Source of the DNA: a candidate division WS2 bacterium ADurb.Bin280
GTDB taxonomy: Bacteria > Patescibacteriota > UBA1384 > DTJR01
Direction of reading: 5' to 3'
Assembly: GCA_002071685.1 (NCBI GenBank)
Contig: MWBO01000008.1
Location: 333-64,332, forward strand
DNA length: 64,000 bases
Shown in pieces: positions 9,299 through 64,000 of this stretch. Position 1 is the stretch's first letter. Each line of letters begins with the position of its first letter. The position numbers and the translations under genes were made by a program. The notes below the pieces were generated by a model. That model was not told where the DNA came from, did not search any database, and was given only the letters and a program-made list of their open reading frames with translations.

Positions 9299-11683
9299 AT
9301 GAAATATTTTCCCAAATCATCACTAACCGCGCTCTCATTAATAATTTTGAGCGTGGCGATCTCCGGATGCAACGGCCTGAATTCTGAAGAAAATACAAAG
9401 ACAAATACAACAAAAATCAATAATCAATTTTATTACGGTGAGCAAACAAACGGATTGATGCAAATTAAATCCGCGCCCTTGGCATCTACTAATAAAATTT
9501 CAAAGTTGCTGAAAAATCTTTATGTCGATGCTTCAAAAGTTGAATCCGGCGAGACGGTTATGCAAATTGATAGTACCGGTAAAGCGATCAAAGTCTTGCC
9601 CGATGGAAGCCTTATTGTTGCCACAAACTTGAATGAGCACAAAAGTGCTGAGTCTATATCCATTTTTAATACAAAAAATAGCAAACTCGAAAATATCTAC
9701 AAACCCAAAGACAATTTTTTGATTGATGATTTTATCATAAATCCTTCGGGTAATTTAATAGCAACCTGGGAAGTTAAAAAATCACCCAAGGGCAAATTAC
9801 TAGGAGGCGAATCGAGGGTGATGGAAATAGATTTAAAGACCAATGAAATAGAAGAGATCATTCCCATCCAAAGGCTCGAAGGTGACATGAACCAAGACGA
9901 CACCAGCCTGGCACAGTATTTTGTAAGTTCGCAAGTTTGCCTTCAGCACCCAATTTTCTACGATAATAGCGACAGCATCTATCTCGACACCTTTTGTCCC
10001 AACACAATCGAAGGAACTGGATGGGGGGCGGGAATTCATGTAATAAAACATAAGAGTAAAAACGCTCAGAAATCACAAATGTTTGAAATAGGCAATTATT
10101 CATACAGACCGAGTATTTCATCCGATGGAAAAAAGATTGCTGTTGTACGGCCTAAAAACAGAAAATTTTCAACCCTAGAGGCATCGTGGGAGGCCCAGCA
10201 AAACCCAGACAGTCTTTATGTGGTTGATGTTGTTTCGGGGGAAGAAACACTCCTTTTTGAATCAGATGACACAAAAATTTCGGCCCAACCAGTAATTTCT
10301 AACGATGGTAAATACATTGGAATAACCACATTTGGAACAAATTCCGGAGAAGAAAAGGCCATCGCCCTTAACACACAGACTAAGAAAAGGATAAATATCA
10401 ATGTGTCAGCAGAAATGAAGCCGTGTTGTTTTGACGATGACAATTATCTCGTCTTTGCCCATTACGATTCAACTAATGCCGCGGGCATTTCTTATATGGG
10501 AGATGCGCCAAATTCATTTTTGGCCAGTACAATTAATTACGTCAACCCCAAAACTGGCAAGATTGAAAAGGAAGCGGACTTTCCAGACAACGATCCACCA
10601 AATGGCGAGATTATCCCAACATTAAATAAAAACTCGGAAAAAATTGAAGGATCATTAAATGCTCCGGCGGAAGGCGCTTCGAAAAAGAGTAGCTCAAATC
10701 AACAACAAATCATCGCATGGATGCCTGATGAGTCGCAAATAGCTTCTGAGAAAAAAGCCCAAATTTTTCATGAAAGTTTTACCAATAATGACTGCACAGA
10801 CAATTGTAAAAAAACGGTCGATCCTAACTCGCTAGATCCGGACTCATGCCCTCAAGACGTCAGAAATCCCGAAGCATGCGAAGTAGTAGAACTCCCTGAC
10901 GGAAGAATAGTTAAACTAAGTACATATTCGAAGCCTACGGGAGAGATCGATCCAGTTACCGGATTTGAGATAGCTACGCCATCAGAGTTGATGAAGTGGA
11001 AGTGGGAGCACTCCAAAGAAATGACCCTGGACCAGTGCAACAGGTGGATCAAATCGATCGGAGGAGTTAACACTTTTGAGAAAAGCAAAAAAAATCCCGA
11101 GATCTGGAAATTGACTTATGAAAATGCCCAGTATTTCAATTGCTTTGACTCTCCGCTTTATTTGTACCCGAAAGAAAAAAAGACTGTAAAAATTGAATCT
11201 GAAAATATAATTTTCAATACCTATCCGAAAACTGAAACTAACGGCTGGACCGTTGAGGCAAAACCCGACGGAACAATTATTCACCAAAATGAAAAGTATA
11301 ATTCAATTAAGTATGACTATAAGGGGATGCACACAACTCCCCCAAAAAATGGAGTCGTGGTAAGAAAAGAACAGCTGAGTAACTCACTAAGAACTTACGC
11401 AAATAATCTGGGACTTAATAAAACTGAGAGCGACGAATTTGTAATGTTTTTTACTAAAAAGCTCTCAAACTTGGGTCCATATATTCAAATTTCTCATTAT
11501 AATATGGGCGATTCAGAAAAAATTCTTAATCTAAAAATTGAACCAAAACCAGATACATTCATACCAATCGTTATGTACTTTAGGGAAATCTCAACACCAC
11601 TGTCTCTAAAAGAACCAACTTTTGACGATATACCGGAAAGAACAGGATTCACCGTTGTTGACTGGAGTGGAAAAATTGAGTAG
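9299..11683 (+). CDS. large lipoprotein with TolB-like beta-propeller repeats and a Cys-rich module
   Basis: Lipobox AISGC. Repeated S(S/N)DGKKIA / SNDGKYIGI blades. A C-x-C-rich segment NNDCTDNCKK...DSCPQDVRNPEACE. Confidence 0.6.
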   Translation: MKYFPKSSLTALSLIILSVAISGCNGLNSEENTKTNTTKINNQFYYGEQTNGLMQIKSAPLASTNKISKLLKNLYVDASKVESGETVMQIDSTGKAIKVLPDGSLIVATNLNEHKSAESISIFNTKNSKLENIYKPKDNFLIDDFIINPSGNLIATWEVKKSPKGKLLGGESRVMEIDLKTNEIEEIIPIQRLEGDMNQDDTSLAQYFVSSQVCLQHPIFYDNSDSIYLDTFCPNTIEGTGWGAGIHVIKHKSKNAQKSQMFEIGNYSYRPSISSDGKKIAVVRPKNRKFSTLEASWEAQQNPDSLYVVDVVSGEETLLFESDDTKISAQPVISNDGKYIGITTFGTNSGEEKAIALNTQTKKRININVSAEMKPCCFDDDNYLVFAHYDSTNAAGISYMGDAPNSFLASTINYVNPKTGKIEKEADFPDNDPPNGEIIPTLNKNSEKIEGSLNAPAEGASKKSSSNQQQIIAWMPDESQIASEKKAQIFHESFTNNDCTDNCKKTVDPNSLDPDSCPQDVRNPEACEVVELPDGRIVKLSTYSKPTGEIDPVTGFEIATPSELMKWKWEHSKEMTLDQCNRWIKSIGGVNTFEKSKKNPEIWKLTYENAQYFNCFDSPLYLYPKEKKTVKIESENIIFNTYPKTETNGWTVEAKPDGTIIHQNEKYNSIKYDYKGMHTTPPKNGVVVRKEQLSNSLRTYANNLGLNKTESDEFVMFFTKKLSNLGPYIQISHYNMGDSEKILNLKIEPKPDTFIPIVMYFREISTPLSLKEPTFDDIPERTGFTVVDWSGKIE

Positions 11684-38748: not shown

Positions 38749-41601
38749 GTGGATAAAATACTAGAGGGATTAAATAAACAACAGAAAGAGGCAGTGGCCC
38801 ATGGAAATGGGCCATGTCTTATAATTGCGGGTGCAGGTACCGGAAAAACAAAGGTAATCACCAGCCGAATCGCTTATATCATCGCGCAGAAATGGGCCAA
38901 GCCCTCGGAAATTCTTGCTCTTACTTTCACCGACAAGGCGGCTCAAGAAATGGAAGAAAGGGTTGATGTCTTGGTCCCGTACGGATTTATAGACACATGG
39001 ATTTCGACATTTAACGCGTTCGGAGACAGAATTATAAGAGATTACAGCATAGACCTAGGGTTGCCGGCAAATTTCAAAATACTCTCTTCGACGGAGCAAG
39101 CAATTTTTATGCGGGAGAATTTATTTTCTTTCGATCTAAAACACTATCGTCCAATAGCAAATCCCATTTCTCACATAAGAGAGCTTTTGACACACTTTTC
39201 AAGACTCAAAGACGAGCTTATAAGCGAAAATGAGTACCTTCAATTTGCAAAAAACAAAATGTCTCAAACCACTGATCGCGAAAGTATGGAATTTTTGCAA
39301 AATGAGAAAACACTTGAACTTGCAAATGCATACAAGAAATACAAAGAGCTGATGCTCGAGAACGGCTACCTAGATTATGGAGATCAAATTTATCTAGTTT
39401 ACAAACTTCTAAGCGAGAGACCTGATGTAGCCAAGCAAATAAGCGACAAATTTAAATTTGTTCTTGTTGATGAATTTCAAGATACAAACTACGCTCAATA
39501 TGAAATTGTCAAAAAAATAGCCAGAAGCAAAAACATCACAGTGGTCGGAGACGACGACCAGTCAATTTATCGTTTTCGAGGAGCTTCGATTTCAAACATC
39601 CTTTCTTTTAAAGATGATTTCCCGCAATGCAAGCAAATAGTATTGTTTGAAAACTACCGATCAACACAGGAAATACTCGATTGCTCATACCGGCTGATAC
39701 AGCACAACAATCCCGACAGACTGGAGGCAAAAAATAACATTTCAAAAAAACTTAAATCTACCAAAAATGGTCCCGAGCCAAAGCTTTTGCACTGCCAAAC
39801 CCTTTCCTGTGAAGCTGACATGGTCGCTGACGAGATTTTAAAATTAAAAAAAGAATTAAACCTACAAAATAAGGATTTTGCTATATTATCACGAGCAAAT
39901 AATCACCTAGAACCCTTCATCACCTCATTAAATCATAAAAAAATTGACAATGTATTCATTGGCTCCTCGTCTCTTTTCCAAACAGACGAGGTAAAAATGC
40001 TCATAGCGTTTCTCAAGTGCTTGGTATATTTTGAGGATAATTTAAGCTTCTACCAGCTTGCCACTAGCGAAATGTACAATATCGACGTCGAGCAATTAAC
40101 CCCTTATTACGCAAAAATTAAAAAAGAAAATAAAACATTTGAGGAAATTTTTGGTTTGGAAAGTCAAAACTTTACGACAAAAATTATCGAGGATCTTGGA
40201 TTCTATAGAAAAATGCTTTCAAGCAAAGGAACAGGGGAGATACTTTACGATTATTTAAAAAGAAGTAATTATCTAAAAAAACTAACTCAAAATACAAGCG
40301 CCAGCAATGAAAGCAAGGTTCAAAATATTGCGAAGTTTTTTGATAGAATAAGCCAATTTGACCGAACGAGTTCGAACAGTTCGGTTTTGTCTTTTCTATC
40401 AAATCTGGAACTGATAATGGAAGTAGGCGACGAGGTACTGACAAGCGATATCGATCCGGACATCGACGCCGTTTCGCTTATGAGCGTTCACGCCTCAAAG
40501 GGCTTGGAATGGCCGGTGGTTTTCGTCGTAAATATGGTTTCCGATAGATTTCCCTCAAGAGACAGAAAAGAAAAAATACCTATTCCCGATGAAATTATAA
40601 GAGAACGTCTCCCGAGCGGCGATTTCCACATACAAGAAGAAAGACGGCTTTTTTATGTGGCCATGACTAGAGCTAAAGATCGCTTATATTTCTCAAGCGC
40701 CCAAGACTACGGCGGAAAGAGAGCAAAGAAAATTTCTCCATTTGTATTAGAAGCTTTGGATAATCCAAATATAGACAACCAAAAGTACAAACTTACGAGC
40801 ATTGAAAAAATCGCTAGGCACTCTTTTGTGAAAAACAATAATCACAAAAAAGTACGCAAGGGCGACGGCATCATCAGACTGTCCCGTCAACAAATAGATG
40901 ATTACTATACTTGTCCTAAAAAATATTATTATTCGGCTGTTATTCAAATACCGCTTCCGGTCAACTGGCACTTCATGTACGGAAGCGCTATTCACGAAGC
41001 TATAGCGAGATATTACATAAGAAAAATGTCGGGTAAAAAACACACACTCGAGGATTTAATAAAGGATTTTAATCAGTGTTTCAAAAGCGAGGGCTTTATT
41101 ACCAGAGAACACGAGGAGCAGAGAAAAAACAAAGGAGAACAAACTCTAACAAAGTTTTTTCAAAAGGAACAAAAAAGCAAAACCCTACCATACAAGGTTG
41201 AAGACTCGTTTGAATTCTTTGAAGATGGTGTAAAAATAAGGGGCAGGTATGATCTTGTTTATAAACACGATCATACTTTTACAATTTGCGATTTCAAAAC
41301 TTCAGACGTCACCAACCAGAAAGATGCAGATACAAGAATCAAACAATCAACGCAAATGAAAATATACGCTCTGTCGTGGTTTGAAAAATATAAAGCAATT
41401 CCTCAAACTTCTTTGATCTTCATAGAATCCGACCTGCATTTGCAAATTACTTTTTCAAAAGACGATCTTGATAAAACAAAAGAGCTAATATTTGAAGTTG
41501 CGCAGGGCATAAAAAACGAAGATTACACCGCTAAACCCGACATCCGTCAATGCTCACTGTGCCCCTACAAAGAAATATGTAAAGATGCTAAGATAGGTTA
41601 G
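38749..41601 (+). CDS. UvrD/PcrA-family helicase fused to a C-terminal Cas4/AddB-type PD-(D/E)xK nuclease with a Cys cluster
   Basis: Walker A AGAGTGKT and UvrD motifs. The C-terminal domain is CPKKYYY...DLVYK...ICDFKTS...CSLCPYKEIC. Confidence 0.8.
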   Translation: MDKILEGLNKQQKEAVAHGNGPCLIIAGAGTGKTKVITSRIAYIIAQKWAKPSEILALTFTDKAAQEMEERVDVLVPYGFIDTWISTFNAFGDRIIRDYSIDLGLPANFKILSSTEQAIFMRENLFSFDLKHYRPIANPISHIRELLTHFSRLKDELISENEYLQFAKNKMSQTTDRESMEFLQNEKTLELANAYKKYKELMLENGYLDYGDQIYLVYKLLSERPDVAKQISDKFKFVLVDEFQDTNYAQYEIVKKIARSKNITVVGDDDQSIYRFRGASISNILSFKDDFPQCKQIVLFENYRSTQEILDCSYRLIQHNNPDRLEAKNNISKKLKSTKNGPEPKLLHCQTLSCEADMVADEILKLKKELNLQNKDFAILSRANNHLEPFITSLNHKKIDNVFIGSSSLFQTDEVKMLIAFLKCLVYFEDNLSFYQLATSEMYNIDVEQLTPYYAKIKKENKTFEEIFGLESQNFTTKIIEDLGFYRKMLSSKGTGEILYDYLKRSNYLKKLTQNTSASNESKVQNIAKFFDRISQFDRTSSNSSVLSFLSNLELIMEVGDEVLTSDIDPDIDAVSLMSVHASKGLEWPVVFVVNMVSDRFPSRDRKEKIPIPDEIIRERLPSGDFHIQEERRLFYVAMTRAKDRLYFSSAQDYGGKRAKKISPFVLEALDNPNIDNQKYKLTSIEKIARHSFVKNNNHKKVRKGDGIIRLSRQQIDDYYTCPKKYYYSAVIQIPLPVNWHFMYGSAIHEAIARYYIRKMSGKKHTLEDLIKDFNQCFKSEGFITREHEEQRKNKGEQTLTKFFQKEQKSKTLPYKVEDSFEFFEDGVKIRGRYDLVYKHDHTFTICDFKTSDVTNQKDADTRIKQSTQMKIYALSWFEKYKAIPQTSLIFIESDLHLQITFSKDDLDKTKELIFEVAQGIKNEDYTAKPDIRQCSLCPYKEICKDAKIG

Positions 41602-44430: not shown

Positions 44431-45309
44431 TTAGAAGGCGGGCCCGGACGGGGGCCTTCTGACCACCTCCTCGTGCCCATCGTCGTAGACGACGGTGAAG
44501 AGAATCGGGGAGCTCGGCTCCCCATCAACGATCCGAACGACCCGAGGGCCGTCGGACCGAATGAAGACGATGGGAAACAACTTACCGGCGACATCCCCCA
44601 TCAGGATGGCGCTGTCGCCGGAGCGCAACTCCTCGGTCGGGAGGATCTCGATGCGCCGAGCACCCTCTCCGACCGTGTTGACACGCACGCCCATGGGGAC
44701 GTCCCAGAGAACGGGGACGTCAGGTGACCCGGGCCAACCGGGGTACCCCGTAGCGCCGTGGTCGATCCACGACACGTTAAGGACCACCGGCGCCGCGCTT
44801 GACAGTCGGGTGTCGGCGTAGAAGCCGTCACCCGAGCGGGTGGCGCCTTGGACGAAGATCTCCAGCTTGTCAGGCTGGATCCTCGTCGTGATGACGTGGG
44901 CCGACCAGACCGTCTGGTCGGCAACCTCGGCATAGACGTTGCACTGCCACGAGGACAGTGCAGTCAGACGCCACCGCCCGGGCGACAAGCGCTCAAGCGA
45001 GAGCGCTTCCGCCGGAACGGCGAAGAGCGTGACCGGCCGGCTGGGAAGGTCCCCGCGGACCTCCCAGATCTGCTGGCCGATCACCTCTACATCCCCATCC
45101 GGCTGAGCCGGAATGGGGTGCGAAACGACAACGTCGTCCGGCACCGTCGCGGGGGTGAACCCTTCGCCGGAACAACCGGCGAGGATAACGACCAGCATGA
45201 CGGCCAAGGCCGCCGAAAACAACTTTTTCAATGTACTTCCTCCCTTCGAAGACGAATCTCCGAGGTTCGATTTCCGACGCGAATAGCGCCATGAGGAAAT
45301 CGTAACCAA
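44431..45309 (-). CDS. lipoprotein (292 aa) encoded by a high-GC (~65%) island
   Basis: Lipobox LAGCSG after a hydrophobic signal. The GC jump coincides exactly with the gene boundaries (44381-45310). The other long ORFs here, on both strands, are typical high-GC shadows. Confidence 0.55.
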   Translation of the reverse strand: MVTISSWRYSRRKSNLGDSSSKGGSTLKKLFSAALAVMLVVILAGCSGEGFTPATVPDDVVVSHPIPAQPDGDVEVIGQQIWEVRGDLPSRPVTLFAVPAEALSLERLSPGRWRLTALSSWQCNVYAEVADQTVWSAHVITTRIQPDKLEIFVQGATRSGDGFYADTRLSSAAPVVLNVSWIDHGATGYPGWPGSPDVPVLWDVPMGVRVNTVGEGARRIEILPTEELRSGDSAILMGDVAGKLFPIVFIRSDGPRVVRIVDGEPSSPILFTVVYDDGHEEVVRRPPSGPAF

Positions 45310-45430: not shown

Positions 45431-45610
45431 TTATTTCTCTATCTGTATCGCCTCTACCGGACAAGATTGAGCAACTTCTTCAAGGTTGCAATCGTCACAT
45501 TCTTGTTTTTTGACCTTGCTAATACCGTCAACCACCTCAAAACATTGCTCGCAAAGCGCCGCACAAGTACCGCAACCTATGCACCTCACCTCATCGACTG
45601 TAATTTTCAT
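45431..45610 (-). CDS. small 4Fe-4S ferredoxin (59 aa)
   Basis: Not in the ORF track. SD GGAGAG lies 5 nt before the ATG. Translation MKITVDEVRCIGCGTCAALCEQCFEVVDGISKVKKQECDDCNLEEVAQSCPVEAIQIEK carries CxxCxxC...CP. Confidence 0.7.
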   Translation of the reverse strand: MKITVDEVRCIGCGTCAALCEQCFEVVDGISKVKKQECDDCNLEEVAQSCPVEAIQIEK

Positions 45611-45636: not shown

Positions 45637-47901
45637 TTAAAGAATTGGAGCGGAAAAATTTTCTTCCTTGAGCTTTTCAAGGACTTCCATTTCTTTTGAT
45701 TTTTCTTTCTTGATCTCACCCTCCGCCTGCGTCTTGGACTGACAGTAATTTTCTCTAGAGTAGGCAATGATCTGTTCCTTAAAATTGAACGTCGGCTCTG
45801 GAATCGAAATTGTTTTGCCTGAAAATGCCTCTTTTACCTCATCATCTATCGATAACTTCAAGTATATTTCCCGAACGCCAAGATTGACGATATCGTTTGC
45901 GCCAAAGCGAGGAGAAAATTCTTTTTCGAGCAAGGCGGCATCCTCCGGACCTACCCTGAAAGCGATAATTGATCCGACATTTCCAAACACAGTGTTTCGA
46001 ATGGTGTCGCTAATTTGCGAAACGTACTGGTGAGCCAAGGACAGACTCAGTTTATACTTTCTGGCCTCCGACAAAATATTGGCAAAAGTATCTGTGGCAA
46101 AGTTTTGAAACTCGTCAACGTAGAGATAAAAAGGAACACGTTGACTTTCGGGCACCTCGGAGCGCGCCAAAGCACTTTGATAAATTTTGGTAATAATCAT
46201 CGCACCCAGAAGTGACGTATTCTCTTCTCCCAGAATTCCCTTGGGTAATTTAACCAGCAGAATTTTTTTATTATCCATCACATCCTGAACAGAAAAAGTG
46301 TTCTCTTCCTGTCCGACAATATTTCTAATAATTGTATTTGATACGAACTGACCAATTTTGTTCAAAATGGGCATGATCGCTTCACTATCAAATTTCTCGC
46401 TCCATCCGGCAAATTCATTGGTCCAGAAATTTTTAACTACCTGATCTTCGATAGATTTAATCGTGTCTTGCCTATATTCACGGTCGGTCAAAAGAAGCAA
46501 TATCGAGAGAACCGACGCCTTGGGAGCATCAAGAAGCGCTAAAATCGTCATTCTCATAACGTGCTCCAGTCGAGGAGTCCAGTTGGCGCCAAAGGCCTTT
46601 TTGAAGGTTTCTATAAGTCCGGTAGCAACTTGCTGACGATAAATCTTTTCCACTTTTTCAATCGGGTTAAACGAGATGGGATACTCTTCGTCAATCGGAT
46701 TGAAATAAATAACGCCTTTGACCCTCGATTCCGGAATGTAGGGAATGATGTTTTCCACCAAATCGCCGTGCGGATCTATTACACAGATACCGTGGCCGTT
46801 TTCGATGTCATTTTTGATGAGTAATTCTTGAAGTTTGGACTTTCCCGAACCTGATTTACCGATAGTGTACATGTGTCTAGCTCTGTCTCTCCTTTTTATT
46901 CCAAATACTTCTCTGATATTGCGATAGTTGGTGGTGGCAAAGGGACAAAGCTCTTCAGGCGAAGTATTGTCAACCGTTGGTAAGCCCAGAGGCGGTTCAG
47001 CTTTTGGAGAGAGAACTTTGTATAGGTTGGGTACCGAATCTGTATCTGTTGGAAAATGAAAAATTGTCGAAAGCTCGTCCGAGGAGAGATACATGGCGTT
47101 TTTTGAAAAACTAAGAGCTTTGACTTTCTGCAAACTCTCTTCGGTCAATTCGCTTACCGGATACTTGAATTCGTTATATTCGCTTTCCAGTTTATTGAAA
47201 ACTTGCGCTATCGGAGCAAGCTTTGCCTGCGCCGAAACATGACTGTCGCTATAGAGGATCATGTCAAGCTCGACTTGGTAGAGAAATTGTTTGTTTTTTT
47301 CGACAGCAGCGCCGACCGCTCTCGACCTCGTCTCTCCGGAAAGTTTTTTGTTAAAGATGTTTTCGACGACATTTAATCTCTGGCTTAAATTTTTATAGGC
47401 CAGATTGACCGATCTTTTTACCGAAAAAATTGCCTGATTGAAGTCAACAGGGGACACTTTTACTTGCAATACAAAACTGTCATAAGCCGTCAATCTATTG
47501 AGCTGATTATAAATATCCGCCAAGAAAGATCCTTCCATCTGATGAAAGACCAAGAAGGGGAATTGATCGCCATACTTGAGCTTGAGATTTGTATGGGCGG
47601 CATTTTCCACTTTGCCGAAGCTTATCTCCTTGGAAACCGTCTCTATTTCTATCTTGGGAAAAAGAGAATATAGCTGGTTTTCAAAGATACTGGCATAGCC
47701 CTCGCCGATCCTCGCTCCATAAAAAATCCTTTTTCCAATAACGTTAAGAGTAAAACAGAAGGGAACATTGGTCAGAATCTTATTGGAAGTTTTGATAAAT
47801 TCATAAAAGGTACCAATGTCAAACTTGGTATTCTGAGGAAGTTTGATGATGTATTCTCTGCTTTCGAAAAAGTCGTCCATAAATCCTTTATAATTTATCA
47901 T
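45637..47901 (-). CDS. P-loop ATPase of the HerA/FtsK/VirB4/TrwB superfamily with a ~330-aa N-terminal domain of unknown function
   Basis: Walker A GKSGSGKS, then VIDPHGDL, Walker B YLYVDEFQNF, and an AHQY/arginine-finger region. It is a paralog of 61826..>64000. Confidence 0.8.
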   Translation of the reverse strand: MINYKGFMDDFFESREYIIKLPQNTKFDIGTFYEFIKTSNKILTNVPFCFTLNVIGKRIFYGARIGEGYASIFENQLYSLFPKIEIETVSKEISFGKVENAAHTNLKLKYGDQFPFLVFHQMEGSFLADIYNQLNRLTAYDSFVLQVKVSPVDFNQAIFSVKRSVNLAYKNLSQRLNVVENIFNKKLSGETRSRAVGAAVEKNKQFLYQVELDMILYSDSHVSAQAKLAPIAQVFNKLESEYNEFKYPVSELTEESLQKVKALSFSKNAMYLSSDELSTIFHFPTDTDSVPNLYKVLSPKAEPPLGLPTVDNTSPEELCPFATTNYRNIREVFGIKRRDRARHMYTIGKSGSGKSKLQELLIKNDIENGHGICVIDPHGDLVENIIPYIPESRVKGVIYFNPIDEEYPISFNPIEKVEKIYRQQVATGLIETFKKAFGANWTPRLEHVMRMTILALLDAPKASVLSILLLLTDREYRQDTIKSIEDQVVKNFWTNEFAGWSEKFDSEAIMPILNKIGQFVSNTIIRNIVGQEENTFSVQDVMDNKKILLVKLPKGILGEENTSLLGAMIITKIYQSALARSEVPESQRVPFYLYVDEFQNFATDTFANILSEARKYKLSLSLAHQYVSQISDTIRNTVFGNVGSIIAFRVGPEDAALLEKEFSPRFGANDIVNLGVREIYLKLSIDDEVKEAFSGKTISIPEPTFNFKEQIIAYSRENYCQSKTQAEGEIKKEKSKEMEVLEKLKEENFSAPIL

Positions 47902-54925: not shown

Positions 54926-56644
54926 GTGGAAAATAAAACTTGTAAGCAGTGTGGGGAGGATTTTGTCGTAAGTGATGACGATTTGGCGTTTTTGGAAGAT
55001 ATAAGTCCTGAATTTGGTGGGCAAAAATATCTAATAGATAGTCCAAAACTCTGCCACAAGTGCCGACAGATAAGGAGATTAGTCTGGAGAAACGAAAGAT
55101 CACTTTATAAAAGAAAATCTGACAAAGGCGGAGAAGAGATCGTTTCTATTTATTCGCCGGACAAAACAGACTATAAAGTTTATTCAATCGATGAATATCA
55201 AAGCGATAATTGGGACGCCTTGGAATACGGATTTGAATTTGATTTTAATCTTACTTTTTTTCAGCAGTACGATAAATTGATACATCTCGTCCCTCGAAAA
55301 ACAAGCAACTCTATAAGAAATGAAAACAGCGAATTTTGTAACCAAACATGGCAAAGCAAAGATTCGTATCTTTGTTTCAACACCGGTTACGCCGAGAAAT
55401 GTATGTATTGCACCGAAGCATTCTATGTCAAGGACTGTGTGGATTGTTTTGACATAAGAAATTGCGAAGGTTGTTTTAACAGTTTCGACTGCGAAGGATG
55501 CAACAACTGCCAGTATATCGATCACTGCAAAAATTGTTCGGAGAGTTATTTCGCCTTTGACTGCATGGGCAGTCAAAATGTCTTTATGTCAACTGGACAA
55601 AGAAATAAGCAGTATGTCTTTGAAAACCAGCAACTCTCCAAAGAAGAATATGAATCTAAAATTGCACAATTCGACCTCGGTAATCGAACAGTGGTAGATG
55701 ATTTAAAAAATCGCTTCAAAGAGTTAAAAAAGAGCGCAATACATAAATTTAACCACAATATTCAAAGTGAAAATTGCACAGGTGATTACTTAAATCAGTG
55801 TCACAACTGCCATGACTGCTACAATTCATTTAAAGCTGATGGTTGCGTGCGAGTTGCCGGAATTGACGACAATTGCAAGCAATGCCGAGATATGAACATC
55901 ATAACCGAGGCAGAACTCTGCTATGAGGGCACGAGCATAACGGGATATAGAAATCTCTTTAGTGTCTTCGTCGTAAGTGGAAGCGGTAATATGTATTGTA
56001 ATTTTTGCGAGAATTGTAACGATTGTTTCGGCTGCGTTGGCTTGAACAAGAAACAGTATTGCATCCTAAACAAACAATATTCAAAAGAGGGGTATGAATC
56101 TCTGATGAGCAGAATTATTGAAAAAATGAAACAAGACGAACAATGGGGTGAATTTTTTGAACCCAGCATTTCACCATTTGGCTACAACGAAACTCTGATC
56201 AATTTATACGACAGCAAAACTAAGGACGAGGCTATCGCCATGGGAGCCAAGTGGCAAGAAAATGATTTTGCACTGAAGTTTGAGGGCGATTCATACGAAC
56301 CAGCAGAAAATATTACCCAATATGAAGATGAAGATAAGCAGAAAGAGATTGTCAATGGGATTTTGGTTTGTAAAAGCTCCGGTAAAGCTTTTAAAATAAT
56401 GCCTCAAGAGCTAGCATATTATCTTCAGCGCAGAATTCCGATACCACATAAACACTCCGAAGAGAGATTCATGGAGCTATTTCGGGAAAGAAATCCGCGA
56501 GAGCTTTTCGAACGGCAGTGTGACTGCGAAGAGGGTGATCACGATCACTCCGGCAGATGCGAGACACAATTCAAGACAACCTACGCACCAGATAGACCGG
56601 AGAAGGTTTATTGTGAAAGTTGCTACCAGAAAACTATAATGTGA
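54926..56644 (+). CDS. cysteine-rich repeat protein (572 aa, ~50 Cys in CxxC knuckles)
   Basis: GTG start. Runs such as DCVDCFDIRNCEGCFNSFDCEGCNNCQYIDHCKNC, CHNCHDC and CNFCENCNDCFGC. N- and C-terminal zinc-ribbon-like CxxC pairs. No family recognised. Confidence 0.6.
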   Translation: MENKTCKQCGEDFVVSDDDLAFLEDISPEFGGQKYLIDSPKLCHKCRQIRRLVWRNERSLYKRKSDKGGEEIVSIYSPDKTDYKVYSIDEYQSDNWDALEYGFEFDFNLTFFQQYDKLIHLVPRKTSNSIRNENSEFCNQTWQSKDSYLCFNTGYAEKCMYCTEAFYVKDCVDCFDIRNCEGCFNSFDCEGCNNCQYIDHCKNCSESYFAFDCMGSQNVFMSTGQRNKQYVFENQQLSKEEYESKIAQFDLGNRTVVDDLKNRFKELKKSAIHKFNHNIQSENCTGDYLNQCHNCHDCYNSFKADGCVRVAGIDDNCKQCRDMNIITEAELCYEGTSITGYRNLFSVFVVSGSGNMYCNFCENCNDCFGCVGLNKKQYCILNKQYSKEGYESLMSRIIEKMKQDEQWGEFFEPSISPFGYNETLINLYDSKTKDEAIAMGAKWQENDFALKFEGDSYEPAENITQYEDEDKQKEIVNGILVCKSSGKAFKIMPQELAYYLQRRIPIPHKHSEERFMELFRERNPRELFERQCDCEEGDHDHSGRCETQFKTTYAPDRPEKVYCESCYQKTIM

Positions 56645-61243: not shown

Positions 61244-61825
61244 AAGTGATTTTTGAAAAATTAACACTCACTGACAACAGCAATTGAGATCTAGCACAAA
61301 TTGTCCACAAATTGTCTATGTGCTTACTTTGTTTTGACTTTTTTCATCAGCTCGTCAACTCAAAGGGCCAAAAATGCATGCTCTGCGGTCAATCTCGCAA
61401 ATTAAATTATAAACGATTCTGGGGCATCCTAGGGCCTCTAACAGGTATATTTACAAGTATTACGTTCGTAATATTAGATATAAAAAATGCCTTAATTGGG
61501 TTTTCAGGTGTCCAAATAATCAATCCACCGGACAATACAGCGTGACGGATAATTCAAAGAACAAGGCATAATAAAAGGGGTTTTTATAAGCTAAATTAGT
61601 ATTTAAAAAAGCATATTAAATACAATCATTTTTTATGCTTTCGATCAGTTTCAGCCACCTGTTTGTTTTAATTTATCAATTACGACGTAAAAGATATATT
61701 GTGCGACATCGTTAAAGAACACGAAAGCGCTTACAGTCCTGCTTACCGGTGTTGCCCTTGCTTAGTACTTATCCGCTTCCGTCACCGTCTCTTTTAGTGC
61801 CTTATTTTCCCCTTTATTTTCTCCT

Positions 61826-64000
61826 CTATTTCTCCTGCTTGGCTGTCGCCTTAGAATCTTTTTCTTTCGGCTCCTCTTTTTCCTCTTTTTTTGAGCCTTT
61901 TTCTGCCACTCCCCCGGCTTCCTCCTCCGGAGAAGATTTACCCGAGAGAGTTCTGAAATTTGTTCTGTTTATGAAATACCATTTATTTATGTCATAGTCT
62001 TCAGCGCTCTTATAACCCTGTAATTCTTTTGGTAATTCCTCCCCCTCCCCCGAATCTTGCGCTACTCCCCCGTCCGAATTGATTTGTTGATCAATTATTT
62101 CGTCTTTTTCTGCCACTCCCCCACCTTGCGCCTGATCCTTTTGTTTGTCATCGCTTTTTTTCTCTTTGTCCGATGCGGACTCCCCCTCTGCATTAGTACT
62201 TAATGACTGAGTGGCGGATGAACCAAGTGTTTTATTTGTTATCTGAACCTCCACCTCTTCTCTGGGCTTTGAGTATTTCTGTCTAGATGCCTCAATTATT
62301 CCTTCGACATTTTCACTCTTGGGGTAATTTGGTAAAAGTGTTTTTGATGAAAATGGCGTTGAAGTAACCCCATTGATAGCCATTTTGATATAAATATTGT
62401 AGTTATCTAAATTCGTCAGATCACCCGCTTCAAATACCGGTACGAATTCCCTCTGCAACGCCTCTGCGTCCCCCGCCCCGACTCTAAAGCAAATCAAAGT
62501 ACCCACATTGCCAAAAACAGCGTTCGCCACCGTTTCGGGCATCTGAGCGATGTACTGGTTTGTGACCATCAAGCTCAAGCCGTACTTCCTAGCTTCTGAC
62601 AAGATCACGGCAAAGGAATCAGTGGCAAAGTTTTGAAACTCGTCCACATACAGATAAAAAGGCACTCTTTGTTCTTTCGGCAAGTCAGCTCTGGTCATGG
62701 CCGCCATTTGAATCTTTGTAATCATCATCGAGCCCAAAAGAGCGCTGTTATCCTCCCCTATTTTTCCAATAGATAAATCAAGGAGTAAAATCTTGCTTGT
62801 ATCCATTATCTGCCTAATGTCTACGGTGCTCTTTTCTTGGCCGACGATATTTCTAATTACAGTTGACGAAAGAAACTGACCAACTTTATTCTGGATCGGC
62901 GCGACAGCTTCAGTTCTAAACTTCTGATCATATCTTTCAAATTCATTCAAAAAGAAATCTCTAATAATCGGATCGGATATTTTGTCTATCACGTCGCGAC
63001 GAAATTTTGTGTCTGTCAGAACCTTTAATATGCTCAAAAGTGTAGCGTCAGGATAATCAAGTAGACCCAAGACAACGTTTCTCAAAATATACTCAAGACG
63101 GGGACCCCACGACTCCCCAAAAATTTTCTTAAATACACTAACAATACCGGAGGAAACCAGATTCTTATATTCTGGATCAACACTCTCCAAAAGATTAAAC
63201 CCTATCGGGAAATTTCTATCTGCCGGCGAGAAGAAAACTACATCTTGCTCTCTCTCTTTGGGTATATAGTCGAGAACATCCCTGACAAGATCACCGTGTG
63301 GATCAACTACCGCCACTCCCCTGCCCTTATAAATATCGTCAAGTATCATTCCCGACAAAAGAGTAGATTTACCAGTACCGGTCTTCCCTATGGCATAAAC
63401 ATGAAGAGCTCTATCCTTCATTTTCAACCCGAAATTTTTCTCCGCTCCTCTGAAATTTGTTTTTCCTACGACGGTGACGTCATCATCTCCATTACCCTCT
63501 ATTACGGGTAAATTTTGTGGCGGCTCCCCTTTCTTGGCGCCCGCCCAGTCCATGGTTGGAGTGACGACGCTTTCACTGGGCAAGTGATAAATCGAAGCAA
63601 TTTCTTCAATGTTTAAAATAAATGGGTTTGTGCCCATCGCCCTTTGCTTGTATTGATTCAGTATCAAATCACCTTCGGTCGCAATCCCCTGTATCAGCCC
63701 ATTCATGTTAACCGTATTGTATTGCTTGAAGGCACCAACCACCGCATTTAATTTTCTTTTTGCTTTTGAATAATCCGAAGACGAACAGGCAATTCTGATA
63801 CTTGTCTTAAATCCAAGTTTTGTTGTCTTCTCTTCTATTCCCTTCAAGGCTAGTTGCATCGGTCCAGAAACCTCTTTTGCTTCCGGAGCAACGGGCGTTC
63901 CACTAGCTGTTGTTCGCCCCGAACTGATCACATCTCTTGCAAAAGATTTCCAAAATGACTCGCCCGGATCACGTCCGGCACGAATCGTTTTTGTGTAGTT
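61826..64000 (-). CDS. paralogous HerA/FtsK/VirB4/TrwB-superfamily ATPase with an acidic low-complexity C-terminal tail (5' end beyond window)
   Basis: Walker A GKTGTGKS, VVDPHGDL, Walker B YLYVDEFQNF and ICFRVGAGDAEAL. Alignable to 45637..47901 along its whole length. The N-terminal domain is ~155 aa shorter than in the paralog, so the gene continues past 64000. Confidence 0.75.
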   Translation of the reverse strand, partial: NYTKTIRAGRDPGESFWKSFARDVISSGRTTASGTPVAPEAKEVSGPMQLALKGIEEKTTKLGFKTSIRIACSSSDYSKAKRKLNAVVGAFKQYNTVNMNGLIQGIATEGDLILNQYKQRAMGTNPFILNIEEIASIYHLPSESVVTPTMDWAGAKKGEPPQNLPVIEGNGDDDVTVVGKTNFRGAEKNFGLKMKDRALHVYAIGKTGTGKSTLLSGMILDDIYKGRGVAVVDPHGDLVRDVLDYIPKEREQDVVFFSPADRNFPIGFNLLESVDPEYKNLVSSGIVSVFKKIFGESWGPRLEYILRNVVLGLLDYPDATLLSILKVLTDTKFRRDVIDKISDPIIRDFFLNEFERYDQKFRTEAVAPIQNKVGQFLSSTVIRNIVGQEKSTVDIRQIMDTSKILLLDLSIGKIGEDNSALLGSMMITKIQMAAMTRADLPKEQRVPFYLYVDEFQNFATDSFAVILSEARKYGLSLMVTNQYIAQMPETVANAVFGNVGTLICFRVGAGDAEALQREFVPVFEAGDLTNLDNYNIYIKMAINGVTSTPFSSKTLLPNYPKSENVEGIIEASRQKYSKPREEVEVQITNKTLGSSATQSLSTNAEGESASDKEKKSDDKQKDQAQGGGVAEKDEIIDQQINSDGGVAQDSGEGEELPKELQGYKSAEDYDINKWYFINRTNFRTLSGKSSPEEEAGGVAEKGSKKEEKEEPKEKDSKATAKQEK

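Follow-up and report, generated by a model that had tools for sequence, protein, structure and literature searches.

The stretch of DNA analyzed here, called the window throughout, comprises 64,000 nucleotides (nt) of contig MWBO01000008.1 (positions 333 to 64,332) from candidate division WS2 bacterium ADurb.Bin280, and the gene at its end, on the minus strand at 61826-64000, is the subject of this report. We call this gene B, the open reading frame (ORF) at 45637-47901 A, and a third paralog located beyond the window C. B belongs, as an ordinary member, to a family that has been annotated and surveyed before, and is not a new kind of ATPase. On balance we favor the view that it codes for a subunit of a domesticated motor, a type IV coupling protein (T4CP) of the VirD4/TrwB type, which works together with C at the membrane. 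T4CP-like ATPases are nearly universal in the ultra-small Patescibacteria, where they are more common than VirB4 and present in multiple copies. This group, whose members live on other cells, accounts for much of bacterial diversity, and the passage of macromolecules across their envelope is largely obscure. To this the locus adds three old paralog clades, a coupled pair of an anchored and a soluble protein, a VirB4-like N-domain and a tail motif, for which, as for the fact that this B lineage has lost its membrane helix, we found no published account. It also adds plasmid relatives that mark the likely origin of the family. Testable predictions follow for Southlakia, the one genetically tractable relative.

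Domain architecture of B

The DNA past the window end was taken from contig JAKJEJ010000002.1 (76.6 kb; GCA_022705485.1), here called L001, in which a coordinate equals the window coordinate minus 50192. On this full contig B encodes 898 amino acids (aa; L001 11634-14330, window-equivalent 61826-64522) and its start lies 522 nt past the window end. The window therefore lacks the first 174 codons, in agreement with the sequence-only reading of the window, which had the 5' end of the gene running beyond 64000. The parts of B and its paralog A are located as follows.

61826..64000, minus strand: B, 3' 724 codons plus stop codon (61826-61828), T4CP-like ATPase, from the open frame
63491..64000, minus strand: C-terminal part of the N-domain (DUF8128) of B plus linker, residues 175-344, from precomputed PF26449 matches, the AlphaFold2 model and hhalign of the A and B N-domains
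62240..63490, minus strand: TrwB-like P-loop ATPase domain of B, residues 345-761, from Pfam and Foldseek
63365..63388, minus strand: Walker A motif GKTGTGKS, residues 379-386 of B, from alignment
62798..63175, minus strand: predicted all-alpha insertion in B, residues ~450-575, equivalent to the all-alpha domain of coupling proteins, from AlphaFold2 and Foldseek
62636..62659, minus strand: Walker B motif FYLYVDEF, residues 622-629 of B, from alignment
61829..62239, minus strand: low-complexity disordered C-terminal tail of B, residues 762-898, from composition, charge and predicted local distance difference test (pLDDT) values
61940..62035, minus strand: short conserved tail motif LPKELQGYKSAEDYDINKWYFINRTNFRTLSG, predicted small hairpin and helix (pLDDT ~70)
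45637..47901, minus strand: paralog A, 754 aa, with N-domain and ATPase domain as in B and without a long tail

BLASTP aligns the window fragment of B with A over 531 aa with one gap, at 42% identity and 65% positives (E = 7e-159). In this alignment LNIEEIASIYHLPSE and LSSDELSTIFHFPTD are paired, and ICFRVGAGDAEAL is found too. With hhalign the homology covers 724 columns including the entire N-domain, at a probability of 100%. Homologues are referred to below as A-, B- or C-type according to the clade in which they fall. The Walker A motif is invariant or at least 90% conserved over 74 aligned B-types, is also present in A and C, and occurs in 116 of 119 B-type matches. Walker B has the same letters in A, B and C, and its residues D627 and E628 are invariant across the B-type alignment; counted together, the two motifs are kept in 116-119 of the 119 B-type matches. 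BLASTP and the AlphaFold2 model agree with the earlier description of B as a diverged paralog of A whose long tail is disordered, and the motif alignment shows both Walker motifs to be intact. A hydropathy scan detects no segment resembling a transmembrane helix in B or in the 54 nearest B-types.

The structure of B was modeled with AlphaFold2 from a 74-sequence alignment (mean pLDDT 82). The model predicts an alpha/beta N-domain (residues ~20-310), the ATPase domain, into which eight helices are inserted at 450-575, and the tail. These helices follow one another directly in the prediction, at a pLDDT around 90 or higher. Sequence searches against the PDB, with both the single sequence and a profile, reached only TrwB and DotL, and these at the Walker A region, so that a comparison of folds was needed. 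In Foldseek, the predicted ATPase domain matches TrwB-deltaN70 with a target-normalized TM-score (TMt) of 0.62-0.67 over ~435-473 columns, which is about the whole of the 411-427-residue chains. The other PDB matches of the model are Cag-beta, DotL, HerA and VirB4/TrwK. With TrwK/VirB4, the whole B model gives alignments of ~900 columns, and the TMt on whole VirB4 chains is about 0.3.

The fold of the N-domain was measured on residues 1-335 of paralog A (model pLDDT 92), which hhalign shows to be homologous to the N-domain of B. The top 11 PDB matches of the A N-domain model are all TrwK/VirB4 (E = 1.6e-6, probability 1.0, query-normalized TM-score (TMq) 0.40-0.49), and the matches after these are unrelated ferredoxin-like folds with far lower TM-scores. 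As predicted by the models, an N-domain resembling that of VirB4 precedes an ATPase of the TrwB kind with its all-alpha domain, and in most family members a membrane helix stands in front of both.

B can be compared to several known systems. With TrwB (R388), Cag-beta and DotL it shares the Walker motifs and, as judged from the model, the fold of the ATPase and all-alpha domains. TrwB, VirD4, TraD, Cag-beta and DotL carry a two-helix N-terminal membrane domain right before the ATPase, whereas B has a soluble alpha/beta domain of ~320 aa at this place and no membrane helix; the likeness in sequence between B and the TrwB-type coupling proteins is marginal (phmmer E = 4e-4). VirB4 (TrwK) has the same order of an alpha/beta N-domain followed by a TrwB-like ATPase. 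Unlike VirB4, however, B has no Pfam match to CagE_TrbE_VirB or AAA_10 and no VirB3, VirB6 or VirB8 neighbors, and its modeled ATPase superposes better on TrwB than on whole VirB4, with E-values being alike. HerA and FtsK belong to the same P-loop superfamily, and B reaches DUF87 just over the cut-off, with HerA among the Foldseek matches. B differs from FtsK in having no FtsK_SpoIIIE, Ftsk_gamma or FtsK_4TM match at E <= 0.01, and from HerA in having no HAS-barrel. Southlakia has its own essential canonical FtsK.

Family membership and plasmid relatives

The sequence-only reading had called B a novel ATPase. This cannot be upheld given a deposited identical protein, Pfam matches above the cut-offs, a DUF8128 N-domain, a PGAP name for the family and a published distribution. 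B is 100% identical to the GenBank entry 'AAA-like domain protein [candidate division WS2 bacterium ADurb.Bin280]' (P0001). Among the candidates scored, more than 6,700 homologues of B have E <= 1e-5, and phmmer over 1.84 billion cluster representatives returns 6,810 matches at E <= 1e-30 and 24,453 at E <= 1e-3. Pfam assigns TrwB_AAD_bind (33.3 bits, cut-off 20.5), TraG-D_C (26.6 bits, cut-off 22) and DUF87 (24.7 bits, cut-off 23.2) to full B, and the window fragment alone scores 34.1 bits for TrwB_AAD_bind and 27.3 bits for TraG-D_C. The N-domain PF26449 (DUF8128) is found on B, on C and on most A-, B- and C-type homologues, according to the precomputed annotations of the sequence collection. 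A literature search for 'DUF8128' returned nothing. The NCBIfam models for TraD/VirD4-like proteins score far under their cut-offs on B, with 46 bits for SXT_TraD (cut-off 366), 43 bits for conju_CD1115 (250) and 36 bits for conj_TOL_TraD (648).

Quinonero-Coronel et al. (2025; PMC12102498) reported VirD4-type T4CP homologues, 5,713 in all, from 2,918 of the 3,035 Patescibacteria genomes surveyed (96%). VirB4 was found in 2,417 of the 3,035 genomes and forms a separate, genuine VirB4 clade. Near virB4 lie 148 of the 5,713 T4CP homologues, and the authors propose a possible exaptation. These homologues belong to the same family as B and share with it the matches to PF10412, PF12696 and PF01935, the PGAP name, a chromosomal place far from virB4, and more than one copy per genome.

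A tblastn search of PLSDB yields 432 plasmids that match B, all at less than 60% identity. The plasmid matches that are close to full length span residues 56-760 of B, with identities of 25-27% (E = 4e-62 to 1e-67; the value of 4e-62 is from BLASTP with the Shouchella protein). A Replic_Relax (PF13814) gene lies immediately downstream of the B homologue in Shouchella clausii, Bacillus methanolicus pBM69 and Embleya. The Bacillus-type plasmid modules also contain a VirB4-like AAA_10 ATPase and 'conjugal transfer' genes, and the module of Embleya, of the Streptomyces family, contains a VirB4-like ATPase, PrgI and NlpC/P60. This position beside Replic_Relax within conjugation modules identifies the plasmid homologues as genuine coupling proteins of monoderms, and the N-domain is thus common to them and B. 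They are annotated as 'DUF87 domain-containing protein' (pBM69, Shouchella clausii) or 'type IV secretory system conjugative DNA transfer family protein' (Embleya). The homology to B extends over N-domain and ATPase and includes a motif around E-E-[IM]-A-x-I-x-x-L-P-S-E. The plasmid proteins differ from B in their Replic_Relax, AAA_10, PrgI and NlpC/P60 neighbors, none of which B has, and the identity is only ~25%.

Two other plasmid records contain related genes. A plasmid of the haloarchaeon Halorussus limi (L170 2625-10039) encodes two tandem ATPases of ~1,000 aa annotated with a 'TraM recognition domain', with a small gene between them, an arrangement that recalls the C-B pair. Priestia megaterium pFDU301A (L171), a 1.08 Mb 'plasmid' record with one annotated feature, contains a disrupted T4CP-like gene with an N-terminal helix that is 30-39% identical to A, B and C. 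It is among the best plasmid matches, and the gene lies in a context of 33.5% GC. The idea that the 'plasmid' records of 0.9-1.08 Mb with the best tblastn matches might be misassigned genomes of the Candidate Phyla Radiation (CPR) was checked on this one record.

The C-B pair and its chromosomal neighborhood

C encodes 819 aa (L001 14333-16792) and ends 2 nt upstream of the B start codon. An alignment over 779 aa shows 36% identity between C and B, and residues 6-32 of C form a hydrophobic helix near the N-terminus. The genes upstream of C are tgt, rplL, rplJ, rplA, pth and ybaB; downstream of B and convergent to it lie secF, secD, trxB, gap and genes of sugar metabolism. The sequence-only reading had asked what lies past 64000, where a canonical conjugative locus or type IV secretion system (T4SS) would have made both copies ordinary VirB4/VirD4. 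The extension contains C, followed by tgt and the ribosomal protein, pth and ybaB genes, and no canonical conjugative or T4SS locus was found, so that this counter-case does not arise.

The gene order tgt-C-B-secF-secD-trxB-gap is kept in relatives at 66% and 57% identity; in one of these, an ORF of 168 aa separates C from B. The two genes are also direct neighbors in two further loci (L003 and L004) and close together in two others (L005 and L006). In addition, at least 31 pairs of B-type and C-type matches come from contigs of exactly equal size, some of only 6-9 kb. At the C-B junction the two frames are 2 nt apart here (TAG-AA-ATG) and overlap by 1 to 4 nt in relatives (TAATG, ATGA). These junctions indicate translational coupling of C and B. 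A B protein without a helix next to an anchored C fits a soluble B that may depend on membrane-anchored C.

A scan of the spacer between secF and B for promoters and terminators gave nothing over the shuffled expectation. This AT-rich spacer of 742 nt between the convergent genes also contains a 77-aa ORF with a TTG start (61312-61545, plus strand), which has no family match.

The three paralog clades

The genome contains one copy each of the A, B and C types. In neighbor-joining (NJ) trees the homologues form three clades, A, B and C, each spanning several CPR classes. The duplications are therefore old, which argues against the lineage-specific expansion that the sequence-only reading had proposed. 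Over the full length, the nearest relatives of B from outside the CPR are the T4CPs of monoderm conjugative plasmids. When five plasmid T4CPs are included in the NJ analysis, 69 of 100 bootstraps unite the CPR sequences apart from the plasmid proteins, and the clades receive 98 (A), 99 (C) and 60 (B).

A-types have ~745 aa and no long tail, and their named members belong to Berkelbacteria, Gracilibacteria and Peregrinibacteria. The tailed B-types have ~830-1050 aa, with named members from Berkelbacteria, Saccharibacteria and Nomurabacteria. C-types have ~823 aa and carry the N-terminal helix in 110 of 119 cases. This helix is found in none of the 54 nearest B-types and is present in most distant B-types; B in this genome and its relatives has lost its N-terminal membrane helix.

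The disordered tail of B

The tail of B has 137 aa, with K and E at 14.6% each, S at 10.9% and G at 10.2%. It contains 31 D+E and 22 K+R (net charge -9), and is thus of mixed charge and mildly acidic. The AlphaFold2 pLDDT is below 50 at residues 770-829 and 862-898, and a short ordered element is predicted at ~832-861. Of the ~150-aa acidic, disordered tail rich in E, K and G that had been described from the window, the low complexity and the disorder hold; the length is shorter by this count, and 'acidic' is slightly overstated.

A tail of 40 aa or more is found in 119 of the 120 B-type matches, and the median length is 122 aa over 205 family members, nearly all of them B-type. The tails of the clade to which this genome belongs have a net negative charge and carry the motif LPxEL..K.AEDYD.N.WYF.xRT.F[RK]. 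Its core, W[YF][FYIA], occurs in 89 of 120 close-clade tails compared to 0.8% of shuffled tails, and the strict motif in 44 of 120. Saccharibacterial tails are without the motif and are basic (median net charge +9), with KKKRTRSRKRK-like clusters. The conserved feature is therefore the presence of a flexible tail and not its sequence. The C-terminal tails of TraD, VirD4 and DotL recruit substrates or adaptors. By analogy, the pattern of tails in this family fits a module that may recruit partners.

B-types in Saccharibacteria and Southlakia

In Saccharibacteria, B-types follow dprA, topA and a gene for a Sigma70_r4/HARE-HTH protein, and face a cluster of division and cell-wall genes. The Sigma70_r4 and HARE-HTH protein (~350 aa) is encoded immediately upstream of the B-type in 60 of 81 loci (L005-L082; for example L017 8796-9851), and in L005 and L006 its gene sits between C and B. 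Neither the window nor L001 contains homologues of the HARE-HTH sigma-like gene, topA or dprA.

Southlakia epibionticum ML1 has the saccharibacterial order, with dprA (SEML1_0298), topA (SEML1_0296), the essential ortholog of the sigma-like gene (SEML1_0294) and the T4CP-like SEML1_0293 (Wang et al. 2023; PMC10633639). SEML1_0293 belongs to the same family as B and shares the synteny of the saccharibacterial B-types. Its normalized reads in transposon sequencing (Tn-seq) drop from 5817 to 2940 and 1372. The second T4CP-like gene of Southlakia, SEML1_0142, is essential. For this organism the T4CP-like family is marked as core and enriched in Patescibacteria, and the annotation lists no ComFA. 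The T4SS cluster of Southlakia is essential, and Wang et al. noted that it contains no recognizable coupling protein or relaxase.

Function of B and alternative explanations

If B is part of a domesticated coupling protein motor, C would anchor a ring or a mixed B/C assembly at the cytoplasmic membrane. ATP hydrolysis could then power the movement of a macromolecule, either nucleic acid or protein, to a channel in the envelope. The tail motif may bring in this substrate or an adaptor, in the manner of the TraD, VirD4 and DotL tails. Given the chromosomal synteny and the lack of a relaxase, classical conjugation is probably not the role.

Several points weigh against such a motor. Oligomerization, the contact between B and C, the substrate and the channel are all deduced from sequences and models, and B itself is without a membrane anchor. 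No T4SS or relaxase gene was found in the ~73 kb of contig examined, where the domain scan covered ~40 window ORFs, among them most ORFs of at least 240 aa. Within 10 kb of the B-types of Saccharibacteria, the loci for which DNA was available contain no C-type, with the exception of L005, a record labeled Saccharibacteria; the C partner is therefore not universal. SEML1_0293, the ortholog of the B-types by synteny, is non-essential in co-culture Tn-seq at each of the three time points. The phylogeny was built by simple NJ, and its bootstraps do not settle the branching order of A, B and C. Finally, the likeness of the N-domain to VirB4 is moderate, at the level of the fold (TMq 0.49), and was measured on paralog A.

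The same evidence has been weighed for other explanations. That B, together with C, is the missing coupling ATPase of the patescibacterial T4SS, encoded away from virB4 and delivering a T4SS substrate, is possible though doubtful. The full-length homology of B to genuine T4CPs, the absence of a recognizable coupling protein from the Southlakia T4SS cluster, the wide occurrence of both VirB4 and T4CP homologues in Patescibacteria and the essentiality of SEML1_0142 would all be accounted for. This explanation is weakened, however, because SEML1_0293 is non-essential whereas the Southlakia T4SS is essential, and because T4CP homologues are more widespread than VirB4 (PMC12102498); the small number of homologues near virB4 and the lack of a T4SS gene on the contig examined point in the same direction. 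We consider it improbable that B-types act in the cytoplasm on imported nucleic acid, as its motors or processing factors, in natural transformation or in the scavenging of host nucleic acid, for example replacing ComFA behind ComEC. The saccharibacterial order of dprA, topA, the Sigma70_r4/HARE-HTH gene and B would suit such a role, as would the basic saccharibacterial tails with their KKKRTRSRKRK-like clusters, and SEML1_0293 is non-essential like comEC and dprA in an organism without an annotated ComFA. B also bears a weak likeness to the NCBIfam model of CedD, an ATPase for DNA import in archaea (28 bits, cut-off 600), and uptake of host RNA by a mechanism that is not known has been reported for a Patescibacterium (bioRxiv 10.64898/2026.06.21.733656). 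Yet the dprA/topA synteny is mainly saccharibacterial, may be an inherited gene order and is absent in the window and L001, the clade of this genome has acidic tails, and a direct link to ComEC is missing. Of similarly low probability is the more far-reaching proposal that A, B and C form a Patescibacteria-wide translocation machinery derived from conjugation, being neither conjugative nor a plain T4SS coupling protein. Were it true, one possibility would be a motor that imports host DNA or RNA, which biosynthetically reduced epibionts need, and the paralogs would be specialized by substrate or adaptor, the B/C pair with its tail motif and A with the cysteine-rich arrays described below.

Two explanations have little to recommend them. 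It is very improbable that the copies are decaying remnants of integrated conjugative elements or a defense ATPase of the HerA or MADS Mad8 type, for which the homology to plasmid T4CPs and PADLOC matches to the mad8 (59 bits) and HerA models could be cited. The Walker motifs are intact in nearly all members, the gene order shared with housekeeping genes persists in relatives with as little as 57% identity, the family counts as core and enriched in Patescibacteria in the Southlakia data, and no integrase, relaxase, methylase or nuclease partner is present beside B or C. The PADLOC matches are limited to the generic P-loop domain; with no defense partner genes adjacent, a defense role for B was rejected. 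Hardly credible at all is a previously unknown ATPase that expanded in this lineage into duplicated systems with ferredoxin-type partners, the explanation put forward in the sequence-only reading. The two diverged copies 14 kb apart and the 4Fe-4S ferredoxin ORF after A, which is kept in a close relative, could be cited for it. Against it stand a family that is annotated, very large and already in the literature, clades older than the CPR classes, the lack of a ferredoxin near B and an A-ferredoxin link that is gone at 67% identity. As the more probable account we retain the coupling protein motor of B and C.

Other genes of the window and the neighborhood of paralog A

The rest of the window is housekeeping in character, with genes for a class II ribonucleotide reductase, a clpB-like protein, relA/spoT, mreB, ftsA and typA, and further genes for a CCA-adding enzyme, an AddA-like helicase-nuclease and rmuC. 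Amid these housekeeping genes lies a 794-aa ORF (9299-11683, plus strand) without a Pfam match. Scans of the window for tRNAs and with Rfam gave no match at gathering thresholds, and sub-threshold matches occur only near 45.4 kb.

Paralog A is followed by a small ORF.

45431..45610, minus strand: ferredoxin-like ORF, 59 aa, with a 4Fe-4S-type CxxCxxCxxxC motif, directly downstream of A, not upstream

The adjacency of A and ferredoxin is kept in a relative at 82% identity (L086, with Fer4 matches) and absent at 67% and 46% identity. The possibility of a further ferredoxin upstream of 64000 had been raised; there is none there or anywhere else near B. The idea of two systems of related mechanism, which the sequence-only reading had offered beside that of an expansion, may still apply inasmuch as the conserved neighborhoods of A and B differ; the ferredoxin pairing on which it had drawn is not general.

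More regular neighbors of A are soluble, cysteine-rich proteins of ~570 aa with many CxxC motifs and treble-clef-like ends. A-types are flanked by 1 to ~10 of them in tandem in 62 of 82 loci (181 genes; L085-L166). The copy in the window is a 572-aa ORF (54926-56644, plus strand) located ~7 kb from A and without a Pfam match. This family may be a conserved partner or substrate of paralog A.

At 44431-45231 lies an island of markedly higher GC, with 50.5% over the 2-kb segment 44001-46000, compared to roughly 40% GC for the genome. It encodes, on the minus strand, a predicted lipoprotein of 266 aa with a lipobox (LKKLFSAALAVMLVVILAGCSGEG...) and no Pfam match. The island could stem from a recent horizontal transfer from a high-GC organism or from an assembly chimera.

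At ~4 kb from A, the window encodes the AddA-like UvrD/PD-(D/E)XK helicase-nuclease (38749-41601, plus strand). An AddA-like gene also lies directly beside a 46%-identical A-type on a distant contig (the P0209 locus), and neighbor clustering places it in 5 loci, which could reflect a weak recurring association of AddA-like genes with A-types.

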